Shown piece after piece: positions 3,302-62,519 of a DNA stretch of 64,000 nucleotides. The notes under the pieces were generated by a model. It was given only the letters and a program-made list of their open reading frames with translations, searched no databases and was not told where the DNA came from. Positions within the stretch are counted from its first letter, which is position 1. Every line of letters starts with the position of its first letter. A program made the translations under genes and the position numbers. The DNA lies in the NCBI GenBank assembly GCA_964016885.1, contig OZ024747.1:92070001-92134000 (forward strand), written 5' to 3'. This stretch comes from Eledone cirrhosa (lineage: Eukaryota).

Positions 3302-3720
3302 ATAAAATATTAAAAAAATAATGAATAAAACAATGAAACAGTTCCTTATATTAAACAAAAAAAGTTCATTATTTAACGATCGTTTCTAGGATATATATGT
3401 GTTAGAATTGGCATGCATATTCAACAGATCTATGTACAAAATTATACAAAATTATACAAACTATCAAGATTAAATATACATACCAACACATATATATGCC
3501 GTCTTCAGAAATATTTCTGAAGACGGCATATATATGTGTTGGTATGTATATTTAATCTTGATAGTTTGTATAATTTTGTATAATTTTGTACATAGATCTG
3601 TTGAATATGCATGCCAATTCTAACACATATATATCCTAGAAACGATCGTTAAATAATGAACTTTTTTTGTTTAATATAAGGAACTGTTTCATTGTTTTAT
3701 TCATTATTTTTTTAATATTT

Positions 3721-3723
<3 letters not shown>
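3302..3723. repeat. Perfect fold-back palindrome (about 211-bp arms, no loop) of a hammerhead-bearing element
   Basis: Centre CTTCAGAAAT|ATTTCTGAAG at 3512/3513; arms match to 3302/3723. A single-arm homologue lies at about 8030-8215. Confidence 0.95.
3512..3655 (+). ncRNA. Type I hammerhead ribozyme with very long stem II (mirror copy on the minus strand)
   Basis: TATTT-CTGAAGA-[about 115-nt hairpin]-GAAA-CGATCG-TT-AAATA. Stem I is TATTT/AAATA and stem III is the palindrome ACGATCGT. Confidence 0.65.
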
Positions 3724-8694: not shown

Positions 8695-9100
<406 letters not shown>

Positions 9101-11149: not shown

Positions 11150-11607
11150 GCAAAGTTTTATTTAAATTGTTGGGTTACAACGAGTAAATATTTATAACTG
11201 ATATAAAAGCACTCAACAAGTATTTGGAGTATATTTACGATATTAAATAAATGGAAACTATATTTATAAAACCATATTTATTTCATTATATATATTTCAG
11301 GGATATCATATTAAAAATATGGTATGCCTTCATCAGACAAAATACAATATAAACAGTCTTATAAATAGATAGGTTTGACATACCTTACACTTCCATTTAA
11401 TCAACTTTTTAAATGGAAGTGTAAGGTATGTCAAATCAACTTTTTAAATGGAAGTGTAAGGTATGTCAACCTATCTATTTATAAGACTGTTTATATTGTA
11501 TTTTGTCTGATGAAGGCATACCATATTTTTAATATGATATCCCTGAAATATATATAATGAAATAAATATGGTTTTATAAATATAGTTTCCATTTATTTAA
11601 TATCGTA
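11150..11607. mobile_element. Asymmetric fold-back element: palindrome 11236-11607 plus a one-sided extension; hammerhead motif at about 11501-11560
   Basis: Arms are reverse-complementary. Motif CTGATGA-AGG...CCT-GAAA-TATATA. Central 35-bp tandem duplication. Homologous to 55129-55564. Confidence 0.9.
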
Positions 11608-14680: not shown

Positions 14681-14731
14681 AGATTCTACAGGACTAGAAC
14701 TGTTTCATTCTTTAGAAATCATCAGGAATCT
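14681..14731 (-). ncRNA. Type I hammerhead ribozyme (family H1)
   Basis: AGATTC-CTGATGA-TTTCTAAAGAAT-GAAACAG-TTCTAGTC-CTGTA^GAATCT: 6-bp stem I, stem III ACAG/CTGT, GUA cleavage triplet. Confidence 0.85.
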
Positions 14732-15396: not shown

Positions 15397-15854
15397 GAAC
15401 ATTTATTATAATGCTCGGTGTGTTTGTAAACAAACATCCCGAATCAAGCCGTACAGTGTCTAGCAACCATTGTTGCTCATTTGTTCAATCCTAACAAAGG
15501 AACGATGTACTAGTTTCAAGCTTATTAGCTATCGTCAGCAACGTATACCTTCCTGCCAGATGGTTGAACGTCTGAAAGTATATACTTTCCTTATGCATAT
15601 TAACAGCTGATTAACTCACTCGATATGCAAATTAGGCTGCTCAGCCGTTAATATGCATAAGGAAAGTATATACTTTCAGATGTTCAACCATCTGGCAGGA
15701 AGGTATACGTTGCTGACGATAGCTAATAAGCTTGAAACTAGTACAGCGTTCCTTTGTCAGTGTTGAACAAATGAGCAACGTTGGTTTCTAGACACTGTAC
15801 GGCTTAATTCGGGATGTTTGTTTACAAACACACCAAGCATTATAATAAATGTTC
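15397..15854. repeat. Fold-back element with about 214-bp arms and a 30-bp spacer (15611-15640), flanked by TA-rich tracts
   Basis: Arms are reverse-complementary with scattered mismatches. Confidence 0.95.
15708..15748 (+). ncRNA. Minimal type I hammerhead ribozyme (mirror copy 15503-15543 on the minus strand)
   Basis: CGTTG-CTGACGA-TAGCT-AATA-AGCTT-GAAA-CTAG-TA^CAGCG; palindromic stem III ACTAGT. Confidence 0.88.
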
Positions 15855-19739: not shown

Positions 19740-19794
19740 ACTGCTATATATATTTCAGTGACAGCCATCTTTGGCTGTGACCTCTTCAGGCAGT
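19740..19794 (-). ncRNA. Type I hammerhead ribozyme (family H4)
   Basis: ACTGC-CTGAAGA-GGTCACAGCCA-AAGA-TGGCTGTCACT-GAAA-TATATATA^GCAGT, followed by AATAAA. Confidence 0.88.
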
Positions 19795-20350: not shown

Positions 20351-20455
20351 ATTTAAATATATATATATTTAAATATATATATATTTAAATATATATATAT
20401 TTAAATATATATATATATCCGCCCGTCTCCTCAATATATCTTATTTCTCATTCTT

Positions 20456-20491
20456 TCTTCTGATGAAGGACTAGCGTCCGAAACGTTAAGA
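20456..20491 (+). ncRNA. Minimal hammerhead motif (family H5); mutated copy at about 29889-29924 on the minus strand
   Basis: TCTT-CTGATGA-A-GGAC-TAGC-GTCC-GAAACGTT^AAGA; palindromic AACGTT as stem III. Confidence 0.8.
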
Positions 20492-23288: not shown

Positions 23289-23344
23289 ACTGCTATATAT
23301 ATTTCGATGATAGCCATTGAATGGCTATGACCTCATCAGGCAGT
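23289..23344 (-). ncRNA. Type I hammerhead ribozyme (family H4, second copy)
   Basis: ACTGC-CTGATGA-GGTCATAGCCA-TTCAA-TGGCTATCATC-GAAA-TATATATA^GCAGT; shows a compensatory C-G to T-A change relative to the 19740 copy. Confidence 0.88.
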
Positions 23345-23611
23345 TAGTCAGTTCTTAGATATGCCAGCTCTGTGTTTATGGTGTTGATGGTATCAGAGCC
23401 TTGGTTCATATATATATATTTTTATACCATAAACGTGGTTTTGTCTTTGCGCGTAATTGTTTTTCACCGCTCCTATAAATGACGTATTATTCGTTTTTTC
23501 CCGTTCTTTGCCAGCGAACGTTACCATGAACCAAAGTATCGTCTTCCTGTCTTCCTCCGGTTGCAACGTTTTTTGAAATATCCAGTTCTGCGTTTACAGA
23601 TTGACTTTGTT

Positions 23612-23662
23612 AGTTTCAGAAGATCCCGTTAAGGGTGAAAGCAGCGATTCTTTGCTTAAACT
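23612..23662 (+). ncRNA. Variant-core hammerhead (family H2)
   Basis: AGTTT-CAGAAGA-T-CCC-GTTAA-GGG-T-GAAA-GCAG-CGATTCT-TTGC-TT^AAACT; all three stems form. Confidence 0.7.
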
Positions 23663-24153
23663 TTAATCTGTTATTTTAATAAATATATATATATATATAT
23701 ATAATGACAAAAACTGAGATACAATAACATTTAATGCTTTGGATGGAAGAGAAAAGAAGTTGAACGTATCGGTCATTAGTCCTTCGTTAGGAGAGGAAAA
23801 GGTGATAGGTTAGGAAAAGAGGGACATATGAGTGTGTGTGTGTGTATACATTGTTTGTGATGGTGTCTAAGTGTGTATGTGTGTGGTTTGTGAATGTATT
23901 TGTCAAATATAAAAGAAATTATTAATGACAAATATGTATCTGTTCACGTGTAAAGGGTTCACGTGTAAATCTTATATAGAATTGGCTTTTACAGGATTAC
24001 GAAACAGTTCTAGTCCTGTAGAATCCATTTCGATATGAAATTTTATGTTTACACTCTACTAATGTATTGAGTACCTTACTTACTGTTAAGCGTTAAACTA
24101 ATATATTCCTTCCATATACTGTACCGATTGTGTTGTTATTTCTGTTTACATTT

Positions 24154-33333: not shown

Positions 33334-33384
33334 GGTTTCCTGATGATTTCTCTCGAATGAAACAGTTCTAATCCTGTGGAAGCC
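33334..33384 (+). ncRNA. Type I hammerhead (family H1), probably inactive (GUG triplet); element tail extends to about 33462
   Basis: GGTTTC-CTGATGA-TTTCTCTCGAAT-GAAACAG-TTCTAATC-CTGTG-GAAGCC; stem I differs from the 14681 copy but still pairs. Confidence 0.82.
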
Positions 33385-34217: not shown

Positions 34218-34256
34218 TGAACAAGTACTTTCATGCTTTCGCAATCTTCAGGTTCA
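34218..34256 (-). ncRNA. Minimal type I hammerhead (family H6) inside an element at about 34100-34345; identical motif at 54028-54066 on the plus strand
   Basis: TGAAC-CTGAAGA-T-TGC-GAAA-GCA-T-GAAA-GTAC-TT^GTTCA; GNRA-capped stem II and palindromic AGTACT. Confidence 0.88.
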
Positions 34257-38310: not shown

Positions 38311-38781
38311 CTAGCAAATGGACGGTGTTAGTTCTTTGTAGGACTGCAGTCTTAATGGTGAAATTCCGTTTTGTCGATGTTTAACAGGGAGGATAAGTTT
38401 ACGTGATCACATCTTTCAATCAAAAATTAGACGGTATTCAAAAAGAGCATGTTTTATTTACAGATATTTGTCATTAAAATGTGAAAATATAGAAAAATGT
38501 GAAAATAGAGATAAATGGAAATATCGTTTGACTGAATGGCTGAAGAATCGGTACAAAAAGCATAGACGACAGTTCGGTTGACATGAAGGCAATCTGTAAG
38601 AAACTACATGCTTAATTGAATTATGAAATAACCTGGGGCATGTGGAAGGCTGTCCATTGAAATGAAAAAAATGGTTGATTTCATCAGTGGGCATTTGTTG
38701 GAAGAGTAACATTACATATTGTGAAAAGTAAGTAATCGCAATAAGGACCAACCTGAAGGGGCTTTCAACTCCACGGAAAAA

Positions 38782-41700
38782 CTATTGGAGGGCTGCCTTG
38801 TAAACCACATTTTTTGTCAATCTTCCGGGAGCGTAGTAAAAGAGATTGGCCCAGTTTCCAATTCTTGAACATCCCACATAGTTGTCCGTGTGAAAAGCAT
38901 GGAGTACTGAGGTCCAGCCCAACCACTTTTAGTGACTGTCCCTGGGCTTTTTTAATGGTCATTGCAAAACTTAATCGAATGGGGAATTCGACTCTTTTCA
39001 TCGGAAAGACACAGTCAGTTGGAATAAGTGGAACTCGGGAAATAAAAACAGAGTCGCCAGCGCCTTTTCCCGTAATGATTGTAGCCACGAGAACGTCATC
39101 CAACATTTGCGTTATAACCAAGCGTGTGCCATTGCAAAACCGAGGAGGTTCCAAGTTTCTCAAGAGTATGATGGGACTTCCAAGTCTTAGGCAGAGTTTA
39201 TGCGGTGGCATTCCCGATGGCTCTTGTGAGTTTAAAACCTCTGTTGGATAAAACGTTACTTGCGTCGGATCCGTAATCGAATCAATCGAAGCATAACATC
39301 GCTCTTGGGAAGGAGGTTGATGAAGCAGACATGTGTTAAGAGCTTGGACGATGGCATTTGTAGGAGCTAAGATGGTCCTTTCACACATCCATTGATGACT
39401 GAACTAATTTGTTGAGAGGTCGGAGTAAACTCTTGTGCAAATGTCCTCAGGGCTGGAGACGTAGTTACCGATGGTACTTATGTCAACCAAACCGTTTACG
39501 TCGATTGGTAAGTTCCCATTACCAACATCCAATAACTTTGAAGCAATGTAATTGTCACCCTCTTGTTGGTGGAGAATCGATCGCATGTTGATGGTTAACT
39601 TTGTCGACTGGACGAAGTGCCAAAGATGAGAATGTTTAATGCAAGCATCTATTTCTTCAACTGGTTGGCCTTTTGGGACAATGGGAAGAGTTTGACGAAA
39701 ATCCCCAGCAAGAAGCAGAACGACGCCACCGAACGGTTTAGAGTTGGAGCGCAGGTCTTGTAGCGTTGTATTGATTGCATCATCAAGTGCATTCTTGTGG
39801 GACATTGTTGCCTCGTCCCAGACAATCAATTTGCATTTTTGAAAGACAGCAGCCCCGCCAGAATTCTTCTTTATATTGATGGTCGGATTTTCAACGTGAC
39901 TGATGTTAAGGGGAAGCTTAAATGTTTGAATGGACTGTTCTGCCGCCGTCTAGCAGTGTTGTTGCTATTCCTAAAGACGCCATTGCAATGGCAATCTGTC
40001 CATGTTGGTGAACTTTGGCAAGAAGGAGGTTGGGGAGAAATGTCTTTTCTGTGCCACCTGGCGCATCAAGGAAGTGGATGCCACCGTTGGTGTCTTCAAG
40101 CAGGGTCAAAACAAAAGTATAGACATCAGCTTGTTCAAGATTCAAAAGATTTTCTCTTTCTTGAACGTAGGACGGAAGCCTGGCAGCATCGTAGCATGTC
40201 TCCCTTAGTAGGGGGCGGTTAAAAACATCCTCATTTTCTCTTTCAGGAGATTCCATACAGTAGTTCTTCAAGGGACGGCTACCCATTTCCAAAAGTATAT
40301 CTTCTAGAAATATGAGACTTCAGTTGTACATTTCAGGTGTAAACTGTAAATTCATGTGTGTGGACGCGAAGCGAGATTGCATTAGGATGTCCAAGCACAA
40401 GTTGTCGCGATATTTCTCCCAGAAAGACTGTGGATTCCCAAGACTGCAGTACTCCAGCATAACGGCGAAGAGCTTACGAAGCGCAATTGGTGACTGCAAC
40501 ATTGATGCTTCATGGAGGGCGTGGTCATAGTAGTCATCATTGTCGAGAAGACCTAATTTGGAGCAGGCCTCTTTAAATGTTGAACAAATATGACCATTGA
40601 CAGTACGAAGGTCTTCAAAGGAAGTTGGACCTTTGACAACGTGCAATAGAAGACGAAGGTGAAAGCATTCTGAATTGAGCGGGTGAACTGTGTACACTCT
40701 TGAGAGGGCATCAGACTCACGCATCGAAGTATCCCTTTGTGAATTGCGTCCTCGCTTTCTTCTTTGCCAACAGCGGCAAGATTTATTCCACGTGTAGAAT
40801 GTAGACAACTCCGCATAAAGAAGTGTTCTGGCAAGAGAGTCAGAAGTACAAAGTTCAAAGAATCCGGTAAGGGTCGTTCTTCGAGGTTGTCTTGTACAGT
40901 CAAGCATATTTTGTTGGTTAAAATTCACCCGTTGACCATTCTCCAAATGAACACTGAGGTGAATAACTGCAGGTTCACGTTCATGGATCGGAAAACCGAA
41001 TATGCGCCAAAATGCCTCGTTAGAAGAGATGTAGCGTACAGTTTCGAAAAACGTGACTTCATCTGTGGCGGCATCAGGGTTATCGGTCTTAGCCAACTCA
41101 ATAACTGCTCGATCGGCTCGCTTATGAACATACTTGCAGATGTATTGGATTGATTTTTATGGAGTTGCAGAATTCAACATTAATATGGGCTGAAAACATT
41201 TTACAAAGCACCTTGTTATGTGGTACAACCCATCGGTTGTCGATATTGAAATCTTGACCACCAACCATTGTTATAGTTGCCGTGTGTCCACCATCCTGCG
41301 GTGCCCTGCGATGGTATAAAGGGTAGCCATCATCACCAGTTTTGGTTTCATGGATAACTTTACGTGGGTAACGCTTTGTACATTTCCCATTATCCATACA
41401 TGCAGATTTTAGATTTAGGTGGCCACACGGTCCATGGATCATGTTGGCTTTTATAAATTGAAAAAGGACAGAGTCTTCTTGGGGATTTGGCAATTCAGCA
41501 CTTATAACGAAATCAACATCAGTTGACATGAGTTTTTTTTTTAAGCCAAAGGAGAATATGGGCATGTGGGAGTCCTCTCTTCTGCCATTCTACGGTGTAC
41601 ATGAAACACCTTACTGGTCCAAAAAGTTGTCCGTATTTTATAACATCCATCAGTTTCATAAGTTTTAGGTGAAACACTCTAGATGTGATACCATGCCTGT

Positions 41701-43423
41701 GTGAAGGATTTTGGCCATGAAGTAAGTGAGACTGGATGTCAAACCATTTTGGATTGCATGTGAAGGTGATGAAAAGATCAGGACGGCCACAATGGCGGAC
41801 ATAGGTGAGAGTATCCTACATTTTTTCATGCATGTAACGGGGGCCTCCAGTGTATGACGATGGGAGAATGACAGAAAGCCCAAAATCCGAAGCAATAACC
41901 TGATCATTTCGGTTGACTTCGTCACGTAGACTGCCGTATTCTTCTGAACGCAGTTCCTTTTGATAGTGTCTTATCCATTGGAGGTGTTCAGTGTCAATCT
42001 GGAAAAGGAAGAAATTGTTATGGTAAATATTGAGTGAACTGGCTAAGGAACGAAATCATAAAATAAGAAATAGTTACCATAGCAAATACGTCTACACAGT
42101 ATTGATTGAGGAGCATCCGTGTTCTATGCAGAATGTTGATGTCGTTTTTGTGAGCCATAAGCCTAAATGCATAAAATTCCATTTGGGAAATGGTTTTCCG
42201 TGGTTGAAGATGCATTAAAGTTACCGGATTACACTTTGGCAAGTCAATGCGGTAGCCATCGTCGACAAAGGGGGGACAGTAATGGATATTGGAGGGCATC
42301 ATATGCAGAATGAAGTTCATTTATTTTTTTGAAAACGCGAGTCCTGCCATTTAAGAACGATATCATGGTTTGAAGCACTCTCATTAGGACTTGTTATAAG
42401 CACCGCAACTTCATCGGTTTGGGCTCTGTTAAAGCAACCCTGATGCTGCCCTGGTGGAGCGCGGTCACCTCAAATGACAACCTTGAATTGATTGGTGTTA
42501 GCATCTCTACGCTGAAAAGCAGTTTTGAAAATGGTGACGTAGGGGTTTATGGTATGAAGCATATACTGAAGCGGCTGCAGAAGAAAAGGTATTGTTCATT
42601 TAGCAACTGAAGCTCTTCGTGCAGTTTCTTCAGGTCCGTTCCCCATAAAGTAAATCTGAAGAAAACAGTGTTCATCGCCATCTTGTGGAATAAGGGAGCC
42701 AATTTGATGGTAAATTTGACCTTGCACTTTGAATGTGGGCATATAATTTCCATGTTTTATTGGTGTATGACCGAAGCATGTCATTTGGAAAGCCGAATTG
42801 TAGGCTCTTATATTTCTAAGAAAGTGTTTAGAATTAGGGTGGTCTCCAAGCAGCAGAGAATTCAAAGGTTCGGTACCGACTTGTAAATGAGGCAATCTAA
42901 CCGTTCCATTGGAGCAGCATATACCGGTAGATTCTGCTGGCCACCTCATTGCGTTACAATGGACGCAAACAGTTGACATGCTACCAATGATGATATGTGG
43001 GTGAGATGCGTAGTCCTCTTGGAGGCTGTAATGAAAAGCCTTCTTAGACCAGTAACAGGAAGAAACCCTCGGAAAGACATGAGAACGCATTTTCCGTTGA
43101 GAATCAGCCGCAAGCCTTGTTGCTCTTTGGTCAACAGTCTCTAAAGCACGGCTATTTGAAGTAGAAGCAGCATCGCAAGCAAGCCGGAGTTCTGCTTGTT
43201 CAGCATTCTGTAATGCTCTGGCCTTCGAAGTAGAAGTAGCATTGCGAGTGAGCTGGAGTTCTGCTTGTTCGGTTGTCTGTAATGCACTGGCGATCGAAGT
43301 AGAAGCAGCATTGCGAGCACGCCGTAGCATACATTGTTCTTCTGTCTCTCTTGTGCGCAAAGAACGCAAAGCAAAAGCATTTCTTGTTTTTATTCCAATG
43401 TGACTCTTGCTTTTTCGAGGCAT
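38782..43423 (-). pseudogene. Helitron Rep-helicase (HUH Rep plus PIF1-like SF1 helicase), frameshifted, at least one intron
   Basis: Starts MPRKSK. Rep motifs GRPDLFITFTCNPKW, YTVEWQKRGLPHAHIL and YICKYVHK. Helicase motifs FLDAPGGTEKT, WDEATM, GDFRQTLP, NMRS, ILAPTN, FAMTIKKAQGQSL and FSHGQL. Ends TKNVVYKAALQ*. Confidence 0.97.
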
Positions 43424-44049
43424 TCTATGGAAAATCTGTAATTGAATAAATCTGAAACAAATCATTAACTGTCAACCAGAGACTGATATACTACAGAACC
43501 TACTGCAAATGTTCAATGAGCTATAAAGAAAATATCATTACAAACTGACTGATCACCTAGAAGAAATTGTGAAACACAATGCTGTAAATGTTATGTATAT
43601 GTCGTTAAGGAATTGTCGCTTACAGCAACTATATTCCGTGACATCGGCAATCAAATTACTGAGTACAATACTTGTCTACTTTGAAGGTTCTAGAAGTATT
43701 ACAGTTCATCAGTGCTAATTAATAAAAGGGTGTTGTAATACACAATATACAGCGTCATCTAAAGTGGTTATGTTTCTTTTATAAAAACGTCTCGCCTCCT
43801 CCTTTAGCAATGTGTAACATTTTAAGAGATCAGGTGAATAATACGCAAGTTATAATACTTTACACACAGACAGAACGGGACTCGATCTCATCGAAAATCT
43901 GTAATTGAATAAATCTGAAACAAATCAAATCAAAGAAATTTACCTGGTTGCTGTTTATAGGACTCCTAATGAAGATTCTGAATGCAAAGTCCCATAAGGA
44001 TTAGAAAAATGGCGATATATATATATATAAATATACCTGTAAAAATATG

Positions 44050-47630: not shown

Positions 47631-48923
47631 GTTCTTTGAGTCTCAGTCATTGATGTTAGTTAACTGGAAAGTTTGTTGAAATGAATATCAAGCTGCTACC
47701 TGCAGCCTCAGATATTCAGGACGTATCGGAGGGTTCTTGTTGTTCCCAGTAAGCATGCCTTTTAAAGTGTTCCAAAAAACGGGGCTGGACTATTCTTCTT
47801 TAGCCATCCCTGGAAACTCCTTGAGATAGTATCTAGTGCGCCTATGACAATCGGGACCACTTTGACCTCATGGCAGTTCGAAATCCTTTTTACCTCCCAC
47901 TTTACGTCCTGGTATCGGTTAATTTTCTCCCTCTCCTTCTCTTGCACTCTCGTGTCGAATGGGCAGGCCACATCCACAATCAGGCACGATCTTTTTTCCT
48001 TGTCCAAAACCACTAGGTCAGGTCTATTGTGTTCCAGTTTCTTGTCCGTCTGTATCCTAAAATCCCACATCACCTTCACCTGATCGTTTTCTATCACCGA
48101 CTCTGGCTTATGCTCATACCACTTCTCAGAATGTGGTAAATTGTTTACTTTGCATAGGTGCCAGTGGATCACCCTTCCCATCACATCATGTCCCCAGCCT
48201 TTATATTGAGTCTCGGCTAGGTGTTTACACTCAGATACAATGTGAGCCACAGTCTCCTCTCTCTCTCAAGTGGTGTTTCAACCACTTCGTTTTGAGGGCC
48301 TGCTCTTGCGCAGCCATTAGCATTCCTTCTGTACCCTTTTTAAGGTCTCCTCTTTTCAACCAGTTCCATGTCTGTGGATCTCTGAATTCAGTTTTCTCAA
48401 AGAAGGTACTATGAAGGGATTTTTCATGAAGGCTGCTCTTTCTCCTTGTTGTTATTTCCTCCGGGGACATCCCCTGGTCTCCTTCAGTACAATTCTGAGC
48501 ATTGGCGCCTTACTATCAGTCACGTATTCGTGTAGGTTGTTTTTCTCCATCTGAACACAGTCCTCTATGCTGATAAGACCTCTTCCACCTTCAGATCTCC
48601 TTAAGTAGAGTCTATCGACATGACTCCTCTTGTGGAACATGTTGTAGATAGTCAATAGCTTCCTAGTCTTCCTATCCATTTCTTTTTGTTCAGCAACATT
48701 CCATCTCAGAATTCCGGCACTGTACCTAATAATAGACACAGCTCGGGAATTTACTGCACTTATGGCATTCCTACTGTTCAGATGTGACTTTAATACGCTC
48801 CTTACTCTCCGAATGTATTCAGATCTTATCAATTCCTTCATTTTTTTGTTCTTGATGTCATCAGCCTCCAGAACACCCAAATACTTGTATCCTTCTTCAG
48901 TGTCAATTTCCTTTATCATCTCA
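47631..48923 (-). mobile_element. R4/Dong-clade LINE with restriction-like endonuclease, 5'-truncated and internally deleted
   Basis: YKYLGV, RLYLRRSEGGRGL, AAQEQAL, ETVAHIVSEC, HNRPDLVVLDK..LIVDVACPFD..EKINRYQD; (TAA)n on both sides. Confidence 0.92.
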
Positions 48924-48966
48924 ATTATTATTATTATTATCATTATTATTATTATTATTATTATTA

Positions 48967-49433
48967 CAGTTGCATTTATCTTGCTTTATGTTCATATGAG
49001 TTATCACCAAGTCACAACCAGTGACCTCAAGAGACAACAACGTCCGCCGTGTTCAAGAAAGAACATACATACTCACACATGCATATTTAGTGTTTAGACT
49101 TGTGATGTACTTATATTGACAGAATCTTCCTTAGTATATGGGCAGTTCCCATTAGTACTATCTTTTGTATTTCTCCTATACGCGGGTTTCCTGGGATTTG
49201 AGATAAGTAATCATTAGACCCCTTAGGTATCATTCCTAGAGTGCCTACAACCACTGGTATTGTTTTAGTTCTCAATTTCCACATTTTTCCAATTTCTATC
49301 TCCAGGTCCTTATACTTGCTCAATTTTCAAATGTTTTTATAGATACATTCTTGTCTATTGGAACAGACATATCCATTAGCAGGCATACCCTCTTTTTAAA
49401 GTCCTTCAATATTATATCAGGTCTATTTGCATC
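48967..49433 (-). mobile_element. Second R4/Dong-clade LINE 3' fragment (different subfamily)
   Basis: ANRPDIILKDFKKRVCLLMDMSVP, SKYKDLEIEIGKMW and GTAHILRKILSI*; flanked by (TAA)n. Confidence 0.9.
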
Positions 49434-53520: not shown

Positions 53521-53623
<103 letters not shown>

Positions 53624-53695
53624 CTGTTTTCCTTCTGTTGTAACGTTTTTTTGAATTATTTTCTCCTGCTTCCACGAATAAATTTTTTTCTTTTT

Positions 53696-53746
53696 AGTTT
53701 CAGAAGATCCCGTTATGGGTGAAAGCAGCGAATCTTTGCTTAAACT
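53696..53746 (+). ncRNA. Variant-core hammerhead (family H2, third copy)
   Basis: AGTTT-CAGAAGA-TCCC-GTTAT-GGGT-GAAA-GCAG-CGAATCT-TTGC-TT-AAACT. Confidence 0.7.
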
Positions 53747-53756
53747 TTAATCTGTT

Positions 53757-53819
<63 letters not shown>

Positions 53820-53820
53820 G

Positions 53821-55022
53821 TATATACAAATAAACCACAGAGTTACTAACTCATATAGATACCCTGTAATTAACAAGCTCAAAGTATAAATACTGAGCAT
53901 TATATAATAATAAATATATATTAATAAAATAATAAATAGGGCGGTGGATTGGCAGTATCGGTAGAGGGTTTAAAATATATAATGGTATTTTCATGAAAAT
54001 TACAAACTCGACTGTCACCACATATTATGAACCTGAAGATTGCGAAAGCATGAAAGTACTTGTTCAATTAACACTTAGAATTTAATATTCTATCATACTA
54101 TTTCATTATAATACCATTATATATTTTAAAGGATTGTAAATAAAACGAGTAAATCAGACAAAGTTGGAATTCCTCTTATTAATATATATATGTATATACG
54201 ATATTAACAAATGGAAACTATATTTATAAAACCATATTTATTTCATTAAACATATTTCAAGGACACCAAGTTAAATTATGGTGTGCTTTCATCAGATAAA
54301 ATATAATATAGATCAGTTTTATAAATAAATATTGACATACCTCAAAAAATGCAACCATTACTGTTGGAAGCTCCCGGATAGTAACGGTTGCATTTTTTAG
54401 GGTATGTCAATATTTATTTATAAAACTGATCTATATTATATTTTATCTGATGAAAGCAGACCATAATTTAAGTTGGTGTCCTTTAAATATGTATAATGAA
54501 ATAAATATGGTTTCGATTTCACCGAATTTAAATTCATAGAAATTTGGGACTTGACTCCTTCTTCCTCACTTTTCGTTGCTTCACCATTTTTGTTTGTTTA
54601 CACTCGCGTCCCCTTTATTTACGTGTCCCAACGACTTTTTTTAGCCGTTGCTCGCACCAACCGGAGGTATATGGTCTTTAAAGCGATGAATTACCAATGA
54701 TGGTTGGAAGATCACTGATGAAGGACTAACTTTATTCATATATATATATACATAAATAGCTTAGAGTTTAGACTCAATGGGGTCATTTACAATCATTTGT
54801 ATTTTGTATTTTGAATTATAAACGTGTCTAGGTACCAAGGTATTTTGCCCATATGAGTCTGTGAGTATTGATTTATTATTTTTTAGATCGTACGGGCAAA
54901 CTTGATGTTGTTGAATTAAGATATTTCATTCTAGCGATTTTATTAGTCAATTGCAACTAAAACATGTAAATGTTCATCAAATATTAATATATATATACAT
55001 ATGCATATATATATATATATAC

Positions 55023-55095
<73 letters not shown>

Positions 55096-55708
55096 TACAT
55101 ATCAATATATATATATATACATATATGTAAAAGTTCTATTTAAATTGTTGGGATACAACAAGCAAATATTTTTATAACTGATATAAAGCACTCAACAAAT
55201 ATTTGGAGTAAAAATACGATATTAATAAATGGAAACTATATTTATAAAACCATATTTATTTCATTATACATATATCAAGGACACCAACTTAAATTATGGT
55301 GTGCTTTCATCAGATAAAATATAATATAGATCAGTTTTATAAATAAATATTGACATACCCTAAAAAATGCAACCATTACTATCCGGGAGCTTCCAACAGT
55401 AATGGTTGCATTTTTTGAGGGTATGTCAATATTTATTTATAAAACTGATCTATATTATATTTTATCTGATGAAAGCACACCATAAGTTAACTTGGTGTCC
55501 TTGAAATATGTTTAATGAAATAAATATGGTTTTATAAATATAGTTTCCATTTGTTAATATCGTATATACATATATATATATACATATACATATATATATA
55601 CATATATATATATACATATATATTTATTATTATATAATGCTCAGTATTTATACTTTGAGCTTGTTAATTACAGGGTATCTATATGAGTTAGTAACTCTGT
55701 GTTTTATT

Positions 55709-60174: not shown

Positions 60175-61180
60175 ATCATCATCATCATCATCATCGTTTA
60201 ACGTCCATATTCCACGCTTGCATGGGTTTGGACGGGAGTTTTCCCACTTGAGGCAAGAGTGGTTGTCTTGCTCGCATAGGACTGTCTGGCGGGTTTTCTA
60301 CGGCTGGATGCCCTTCCTAACACCAACCACATTTACAGTGTGGAACTGGGAGGGTTTTACCGTGTTACCTACACAACCACATTACAGCGTGGACTGTGTT
60401 TTTTGTCGTGACACCTACACGACCTCATTTGTTTCGGGCTGGATGTTGTGGCACCAACATAACTTTATACTGAAAGGGGCGGTGTGGATAGGGTGGGGGT
60501 AGTGGGACGGGGGTGTATTTTGTTAGAGGTGCCTACTGACTGTAGTAGGTTTCACTTTGTACTTAGGTAAGGCGGGTCTTCTGTATTACTGTGTAGCGCC
60601 AAAGATCTCGGTCCAGTGACATTGTCTTGGAGAGGTGTAAGTGTGTGAGGTCGGAATTTATCAAGTCATCCCAGGTTTTTCTGGGTCTGCCTACTCCGTG
60701 GCTACCGTCTATTTTTATTGCCCTGCACTTTTTTATACAGCTGTCGGTTTTCATGCGCATCACGTGACCTTACCAACGTAGCCTTCTCTCGAGTAAACAA
60801 CATCTGATCCCTCTTATTTCTAATTTTTCCCTTAGTTCGTTTATGCTTTGCCGTTCACGTATATTACTATTACACATCCAGCGGAGCATGCAAGCTTCGT
60901 TCCTCTCCAGTCTGCGTATATCCTCTGCACACAATGCCCAGGTCTCACTGCCATGCAACATTGCTGTTCGTATGCAGGAATCATACAGCCTGCCTTTCAT
61001 TTTTAGGGAGAACCCTTTAGCGGCTAATAGTGGTATAAGCTCTCTGAACTTTTTCCATCCAGTTCTGACTCTAGCTACTGTACTTTCAGAGCACCCTCCC
61101 CCACTGCTGATTTTGTCACCCAGGTAACGGAAGCTGTCCACTATTTCTATAGAACCATCTGTGCAATGGAATGAGCTAGT
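60175..61180 (-). mobile_element. RTE LINE, 5'-truncated, with 3' UTR and (GAT)n tail
   Basis: DSFRYLGD...KGRLYDSCIRTAMLHGSETW...ERRLRW and GRPRKTW; the 3' end reads ATCATCATCGTTTAACGTCC on the plus strand. Confidence 0.93.
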
Positions 61181-62519
61181 ATATATATATATATATGAGT
61201 GTGTGTGTCTGTATGTAATTATATATATATATATAATAAAGATATCCGTGTATAAAAAATATATTACGATTTGCTAACCAATAACCCTTCGAAAGAAATG
61301 GAACAACAATTTAGATATCTTGTACTAAAACATATAGACCATACAATCAGTTAGAACAATGAAATATTACTTTATATTAACAATACACCGACATACTATC
61401 ATGCCTAGCAGTTGCTCCTTCTAGTTCTGAAGAATTGTGAATAATTACCATAATTAAATGGATAATTAGCACGTCGAGATAGGAACTTTCGTCAGTGGGA
61501 CAATGTTAATCAATAAATCAATAATTCGATTACTTAATCAATTAAGTTATTAACCCAATGTACAAGACATCGACTGTCCACGAATAAGTGTGTGATAGGA
61601 CCCAAACACTTGTTGCTTGTCAAGAGACATTCCTCGGTCTGCTAGAGACATGGAAAGTTGAACGCAGAGAGGAATACTTAATATATACATTACCAGTCAT
61701 GAAGCACTCCACCTATGTTTTTGAACATGGGAGTGAATATATAATTATATGTATATATGTGTGTATGTATGTATATATGCATGTATGCTAAATCAGGTCG
61801 CTCTTCATCGCTACTGGCAACATATAAACCAGTACATCTTGTGCATGGTCGGTTCGTCGGTGACTAACCGGCAACCCCACCAAGCTTGCTTGGTGAGGAG
61901 GGTGATTTTGGACACCGTGCGTGATGAAAAAGAAAACCCTTCAAAAGGCAGAACTGAAGGGAGTCAACGGCCATCCAATAAAGTGTTTCTTTTGTGTGTG
62001 TGTGTGGAGCGAGAGACTCCTAATCTTCATTAAGACACCTCTCTAAGAGAAGGTCACTCGGATATAAAACCTGCGACTTTGTTTGCATCCAATGATGTAG
62101 ACCAGTTCTTCTTTTTGGGCAAAATGCATTCGATGTTCAGAGAGTGGGCTTGGCTCCGTGCAAAGCCTTTCCTCACTTACAAAATCTTCAAGCACAAGCA
62201 TCGCTTGATATGTGACATTTTTGGTGATGCATGGTATTGCTGGCTATAGGCAAGTCCTTAGCAGGACTAAAAAGCCATGTTCGTGGTGCTCATGATTAAG
62301 TATCAAGCGTTGGCATTACTCGAATGTATGTATATATATGTATGTATGTATGTATTTATGTATGTGTGTATATATGTATGTATATGCGTATGTATGAATG
62401 TTTGTATGTTCTTTTGGATTCATAATTTTATAAATTTTTACCAATACAGAGTCGATTTCTAACATAGATACAAGACTCTTTCATTGGAATTTAAACAACA
62501 TCAAGTAGTTAGATATGTA

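Follow-up and report, generated by a model that had tools for sequence, protein, structure and literature searches.

A hammerhead motif with A at position 4 in the end repeats of a Penelope-like retroelement of Eledone cirrhosa

Introduction

Hammerhead motifs occur in Penelope-like elements, where their role is debated and where they may even be parasites, as far as the accessible sections of the two main sources go (Cervera and de la Pena 2014, PMC4209133; Craig 2021, PMC8557442), and the metazoan motifs have low activity in vitro (Cervera 2014). Among the Hydra-clade rows of File S2 in Craig 2021, position 4 of the catalytic core is U in 26/26, a U.U at 10.1/11.1 is present in 14/26 and U17 in 10/26, the file having been built with a canonical-core descriptor under which A4 could not have been listed. 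The U10.1.U11.1 combination is a known active variant (PMC3088659; PMC9608096, accessible parts). The available text of Perreault 2011 (PMC3088659) also states that a U4C change keeps enough in vivo activity, and tertiary contacts are proposed there to offset core changes; in the full mutant scan of Roberts 2023, single and double mutants of the CUGA turn have low activity except for a C3-G8 swap. A literature search, with most subscription papers outside its range, found no natural U4A hammerhead, entries in the figures of Perreault 2011 being possible exceptions.

Here we analyse a 64,000-nt stretch of the Eledone cirrhosa genome (the window), in which a hammerhead with a CAGAAGA core in place of CUGANGA had been proposed. 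We describe the motif, its carrier element, the state of position 4 across the genome and the constraint acting on the fold, and we weigh the readings that these observations allow.

Results

Three repeat copies share a hammerhead with A4

CAGAAGA...GAAA has six matches in the window, compared with a mean of 0.51 and a maximum of 3 in shuffles. Those with cores at 8855, 23617 and 53701, all on the forward strand, are copies of one repeat family (Table 1), and all three have CAGAAGA, as originally predicted. At 23617, three helices surround the core with stem I open-ended, which is the architecture of a type I hammerhead; C3, G5, A6, N7, G8 and A9 are as in the consensus, position 4 departs from it, and G12, A13, A14, A15.1, U16.1 and H17 are those expected of type I. 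The anticipated U.U at 10.1/11.1 and CUU triplet are likewise present at 23617, and of the stems I to III claimed for the two best copies, the proximal ones pair at 23617 and 53701, with mismatches at 8855. An extended, bulged stem I is present at 23617 and conserved across the subfamilies described below; its contact with loop II is putative.

Table 1. Features of the window and of the carrier element (window positions unless stated otherwise)
Feature	Position	Strand	Remarks
5'-truncated end repeat (pLTR) copy of a Hydra-clade Penelope-like element, ending in (TA)n	23420..23684	+	matches 3' end of full unit in locus L051; boundaries approximate
AG acceptor of the element's 750-nt GT-AG intron	23513..23514	+	precise removal in some genomic copies
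Full type I hammerhead	23596..23671	+	all stems pair in fold analysis
Distal stem I	23596-23604/23663-23671	+	9 bp; pairing probability 0.94
Bulge	23605-23611	+	7 nt, between proximal and distal stem I
Proximal stem I	23612-23616/23658-23662	+	5 bp
Core C3-A9, CAGAAGA	23617..23623	+	A4 at 23618
U10.1.U11.1, 3-bp stem II, 5-nt loop II	23624..23636	+	fold read against sequence
G12-A15.1, 5-bp stem III, CUU triplet	23637..23657	+	fold read against sequence
Predicted cleavage site after U17	23657	+	from hammerhead numbering
Second end-repeat copy, core at 8855, A4	8698..8922	+	stems II and III mismatched; boundaries approximate
Third end-repeat copy, core at 53701, A4	53621..53758	+	distal stem I decayed, three proximal stems pair; boundaries approximate
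Canonical-U4 hammerhead sites	11336-11507, 14703-14725, 15514-15737, 19753-19789, 20460-20483
Canonical-U4 hammerhead sites	23302-23339, 33340-33362, 34229-34251, 54033-54055, 54255-55506
Perfect 422-bp palindrome	3302-3723
Presumed broken Helitron-like Rep/helicase frames	38765-43471	-	by motifs
Presumed Tc1-like transposase fragment and non-LTR retrotransposon fragments	2139-2477, 47762-48985, 60770-61273	-
Element protein motifs (residues): DKT, YRDD, CNCRNRADC (CxCX5C linker), AYIG	115, 346, 564, 597

The hammerhead fold at 23617 has an energy of -13.5 kcal/mol and lies 2.1 kcal/mol above the minimum (-15.6 kcal/mol). A4 contributes an extra pair to a competing helix, and the stem I probability is 0.07 with A4 vs 0.11 with U4. 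Folding z-scores (-0.89, -0.98 and +1.08) are not significant. An Rfam scan of 23560-23700 returned no hammerhead family among six matches up to E=10, and in the whole-window scan microsatellite microRNA matches dominate the 150 of 269 rows listed.

The remaining matches were rejected: the one at 60550-60583 (-) as a second U4A family, given free variation at its position 3 and in GAAA and the lack of a following U16.1; the one at 41907-41946, which is inside the Helitron-like frames; and the one at 20444-20462, where the flank of a canonical hammerhead is read on the reverse strand. The match at 60550-60583 is not a hammerhead and lies where a common non-LTR repeat terminates. The window also contains six or more further hammerhead families that have the canonical U4, several of them arranged as inverted pairs, and the family at 34229 and 54033 has the U.U, A7 and the CUU triplet in common with the A4 motif.

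The motif lies in the end repeats of a Penelope-like element

Judged by their sequences, the three CAGAAGA motifs of this family belong to 5'-truncated copies of the end repeat of an autonomous Penelope-like retroelement of the Hydra clade; the motif family of the original prediction is real, and what that prediction left out is its carrier. Loci with two motifs define a unit of 3,259 bp whose end repeats each contain the hammerhead. The single ORF codes for 709 aa, a reverse transcriptase followed by a C-terminal GIY-YIG endonuclease, and a 713-codon frame is open in 12 of 30 loci selected by protein. The protein has RLRW followed by R, where the RWK motif has K, at 35-39, and its endonuclease is without an internal CCHH, the sole CxxC being at 662 and a CKH (CxH) near 690, by the conserved E and N. 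Its Atlas neighbours carry GIY-YIG and RVT_1; two partial frames scanned directly against Pfam gave no match. The element inserts into (TA)n, and its end repeats are both tandem and inverted. Assignment to the Hydra clade rests on the frame motifs and the (TA)n insertion, marks given in the accessible text of Craig 2021 (PMC8557442), and not on a tree. Hydra-clade elements carry a canonical hammerhead, and here position 4 is A; none of canonical type was found elsewhere in the unit (locus L051).

The usual 3' end of the element lies ~26 nt beyond the motif, and genomic copies extend from 26 to ~115 nt past the predicted cut site, so their templates were uncut or re-ligated.

The 3'-UTR holds a 750-nt GT-AG intron (locus L064:3711-4461) that is precisely removed in genomic copies, which shows that the element has been transcribed and spliced while its A4 motif was intact. 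The donor exon is joined to an acceptor ~100 nt upstream of the core in 74 of the first 100 of 326 rows (hand count), a reversed-pattern control for the junction search giving 116. Two adjacent acceptors serve this intron, and the same GT..AG skip is seen in public contigs. Variants shared among spliced copies suggest that a single spliced master gave rise to many of them, and one row hints at a third acceptor, located within the intron.

A4 is the family state and is derived

Genome counts are exact pattern matches over 3.0 Gb. When position 4 of a 30-mer is left unspecified there are 18,114 matches, with A in all of the first 100 listed, and the same 30-mer with U4 has 71. A4 is found in 61/61 copies covering the position at the 30 protein-selected loci, in 30/30 copies picked via an anchor ~85 nt upstream and in 35/38 old-subfamily copies; with positions 4-9 open, the first 100 of 667 matches include 95 with A4, three with C and two with T (hand count). 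In public contigs there is no position-4 variant among the matches listed (24 and 52 further rows stand outside these). The consensus at position 4, on which the original prediction hinged, is therefore A.

An apparent U4 sister subfamily of 1,525 matches was rejected, as the 30 loci read comprise 23 fold-back junctions, five unrelated sequences and two truncated copies; 20 more rows of this apparent population are fold-backs, unrelated repeats and two rearranged copies of old subfamilies. These matches are mostly artefact, because a fold-back junction centred on A4 makes the opposite strand spell CTGAAGA.

The fold-back junction recurs exactly on the A4 base, within a 7-nt quasi-palindrome, TTC-A-GAA (23/30 loci read, L123-L152). 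If this micro-palindrome were inverted, A4 would turn into U4 and vice versa, and A4 may have arisen in this way. A chimeric repeat in which the motif begins at A6 after fixed foreign sequence (L340, L178, L199) accounts for ~10 of the first 100 rows of a core-joint search.

A sister Hydra-like family in the same genome, with 45% identity over the endonuclease region, has a CUGAAGA core, another related fragment precedes a CUGAAGA core with U.U, and among seven metagenome relatives four have CUGAGGA and a fifth a CUGAUGA core. Since related Hydra families have U4, we take U4 to be ancestral and A4 derived; the U.U at 10.1/11.1, being common in the clade, is no part of the novelty. The sister family (L093-L098) has a stem II of ~110 nt and a hammerhead ~690 nt after the frame. 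Metagenome elements with 40-41% identity to the Eledone element have a hammerhead closely resembling the Hydra-1_aMil row.

Core and stems are kept while flanks and loops change

Old subfamilies were reached through a variant stem III (326 matches) and a variant bulge, with 60 more places added. The 481 profile matches reduce to 415 distinct copies, of which the 184 near-full ones entered the subfamily analysis, and clustering on flank columns only gave five groups. These subfamilies have internal divergences of 2-13% and flanks up to 38% apart, and all are A4. Young copies differ by 2% from their majority state, and pieces of frame beside one old copy share 62-72% identity with the young protein in most of their segments, a figure that includes decay.

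Core and stem columns were compared where neither old-copy search pattern fixes them (n=35). Across the five majority states, 1/35 of these columns varies vs 34/80 flank columns (Fisher p=5e-6), and 7/11 free bulge and loop II columns vary (p=4e-5 against the same 1/35), p-values that are indicative because columns share one history and the five subfamilies are one lineage. The sole stem change is C to T and keeps a G.U pair. G8, G12 and the neighbouring catalytic positions are unchanged in all five majority states, and N7 is U in 7/16 copies of one old subfamily. The terminal pair that follows distal stem I is C-G in 7/14 copies of one old subfamily, U-A in 13/16 and 6/8 copies of two others, and mismatched in the two youngest; the stem evidence is mostly invariance, with this one double-sided change.

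The stem conservation on which the original prediction also depended is therefore present. Because core and stems stayed unchanged while loops and flanks drifted, the motif is, on this comparison of copies, under constraint rather than a decaying relic. The prediction had left the choice between a new active variant and a family amplified with a dead ribozyme; subfamily constraint favours a selected variant and argues against the dead ribozyme.

Discussion

We propose that the element carries a type I hammerhead that kept A4 through five successive subfamilies, probably cleaves itself slowly after U17, and has its fold under selection, a reading to which we give a probability of about one half. 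A4 would weaken the U-turn and lower the cleavage rate, and docking of the bulged, extended stem I on loop II may rescue part of the activity. Slow cutting could be tolerated or even useful if the element needs some RNA uncut and some processed: the uncut transcript would serve for translation and as a template reaching past the cut site, and the processed product would be a unit-length RNA. In peach latent mosaic viroid, U4A is reportedly without significant cleavage and U4C cleaves.

The 5' ends of genomic copies do not discriminate between cutting and non-cutting RNA: a search for such ends gave 787 matches at the cut site vs 908 at a point inside the core, and canonical-U4 families give no positive control. 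None of 81 incidental copies has its 5' end at the cut, and three canonical-U4 families behave likewise (0/16, 0/18 and 0/15); three further families in this comparison are confounded by low-complexity anchors.

A more ambitious form of the proposal, which we put forward tentatively, is a natural, active U4A hammerhead, the first of its kind, in which the bulged stem I would rescue a purine in the uridine turn and slow cutting would be selected so that splicing and translation compete with self-cleavage, with C-A-G possibly also serving as a splice acceptor through which the ribozyme is turned off.

The strongest rival, a somewhat unlikely one in our estimate, is an RNA that does not cut and whose fold and core are kept as a handle bound by the element's reverse transcriptase/endonuclease or by a host factor to pick the 3' end. 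The place of the motif close to the usual 3' end suits such a role, as do the genomic copies that extend past the cut site, although read-through copies are also the rule in the three canonical-U4 families. The poor activity of CUGA mutants (Roberts 2023) points the same way, and so do the Naiads, which proliferate without canonical hammerheads according to the accessible part of Craig 2021 (PMC8557442). Against a mere handle, G8, G12 and their neighbours are unchanged in the majority states while N7 varies, which is the pattern expected for catalysis.

It is improbable, in our view, that A4 owes its fixation to a second role of C3-A4-G5 as a 3' splice acceptor, with the pyrimidine-rich bulge leading into TTTCAG, such that the translated mRNA would lose the 5' half of the ribozyme by splicing and the unspliced RNA would retain it. 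The element is indeed spliced, by the 750-nt skip and the 74 joined rows described above, each of the five subfamilies has a pyrimidine-rich bulge, and an intron ends at helix I of the Penelope hammerhead of Drosophila virilis (Cervera 2014, PMC4209133, accessible text). Yet no joint of the main donor exon to the core was found in either of two junction searches (0/100 listed in each) or among the 15 public-contig matches listed (16 more stand outside these), a result that would not settle the matter if RNA spliced at the core is never reverse-transcribed into the genome.

A ribozyme dead since the change from U4 to A, carried as a neutral passenger in a successful master lineage, would fit the non-significant z-scores and young copies so close to their majority state that copy number alone shows no selection, but it is equally improbable, as core and stems have not drifted between subfamilies with flank differences of up to 38% and altered loops.

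The family offers a one-letter test of what hammerheads do for such elements, with more than 18,000 copies, intact frames and everything kept except U4. If the A4 hammerhead cuts, the consensus widens and searches based on CUGANGA miss natural ribozymes; if it does not, a conserved fold has another job.

Set beside known systems, as far as the accessible parts of the sources describe them, the element resembles Hydra-clade elements (Craig 2021, PMC8557442) in its single frame with DKT, an RW motif, the CxCX5C linker and AYIG, in CxxC and CxH near the end, and in its (TA)n insertion and type I hammerhead near the 3' end; its unit of 3.26 kb compares with one generally under 3 kb in the clade. 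It shares U17 and the U.U at 10.1/11.1 with Hydra rows of File S2, and unlike 26/26 of these rows it has A4 instead of U4 and G15.2-C16.2 instead of C15.2-G16.2; its hammerhead also differs from the Hydra-1_oBim row, which marks it as another family. Both end repeats ~3 kb apart, inverted partner copies and a majority of truncated copies are shared with the Penelope-like elements of Cervera and de la Pena 2014 (PMC4209133), whose motifs are minimal or dimeric, whereas here stem III is stable as a monomer and stem I is extended and bulged. The available text of that paper describes U3-A8 covariation and no position-4 variant. A natural precedent is peach latent mosaic viroid, where a change at position 4 (U4C) is tolerated (Perreault 2011, PMC3088659; PMC9608096), but the viroid change is to a pyrimidine and a minority variant, whereas in Eledone cirrhosa the entire lineage is fixed for a purine.
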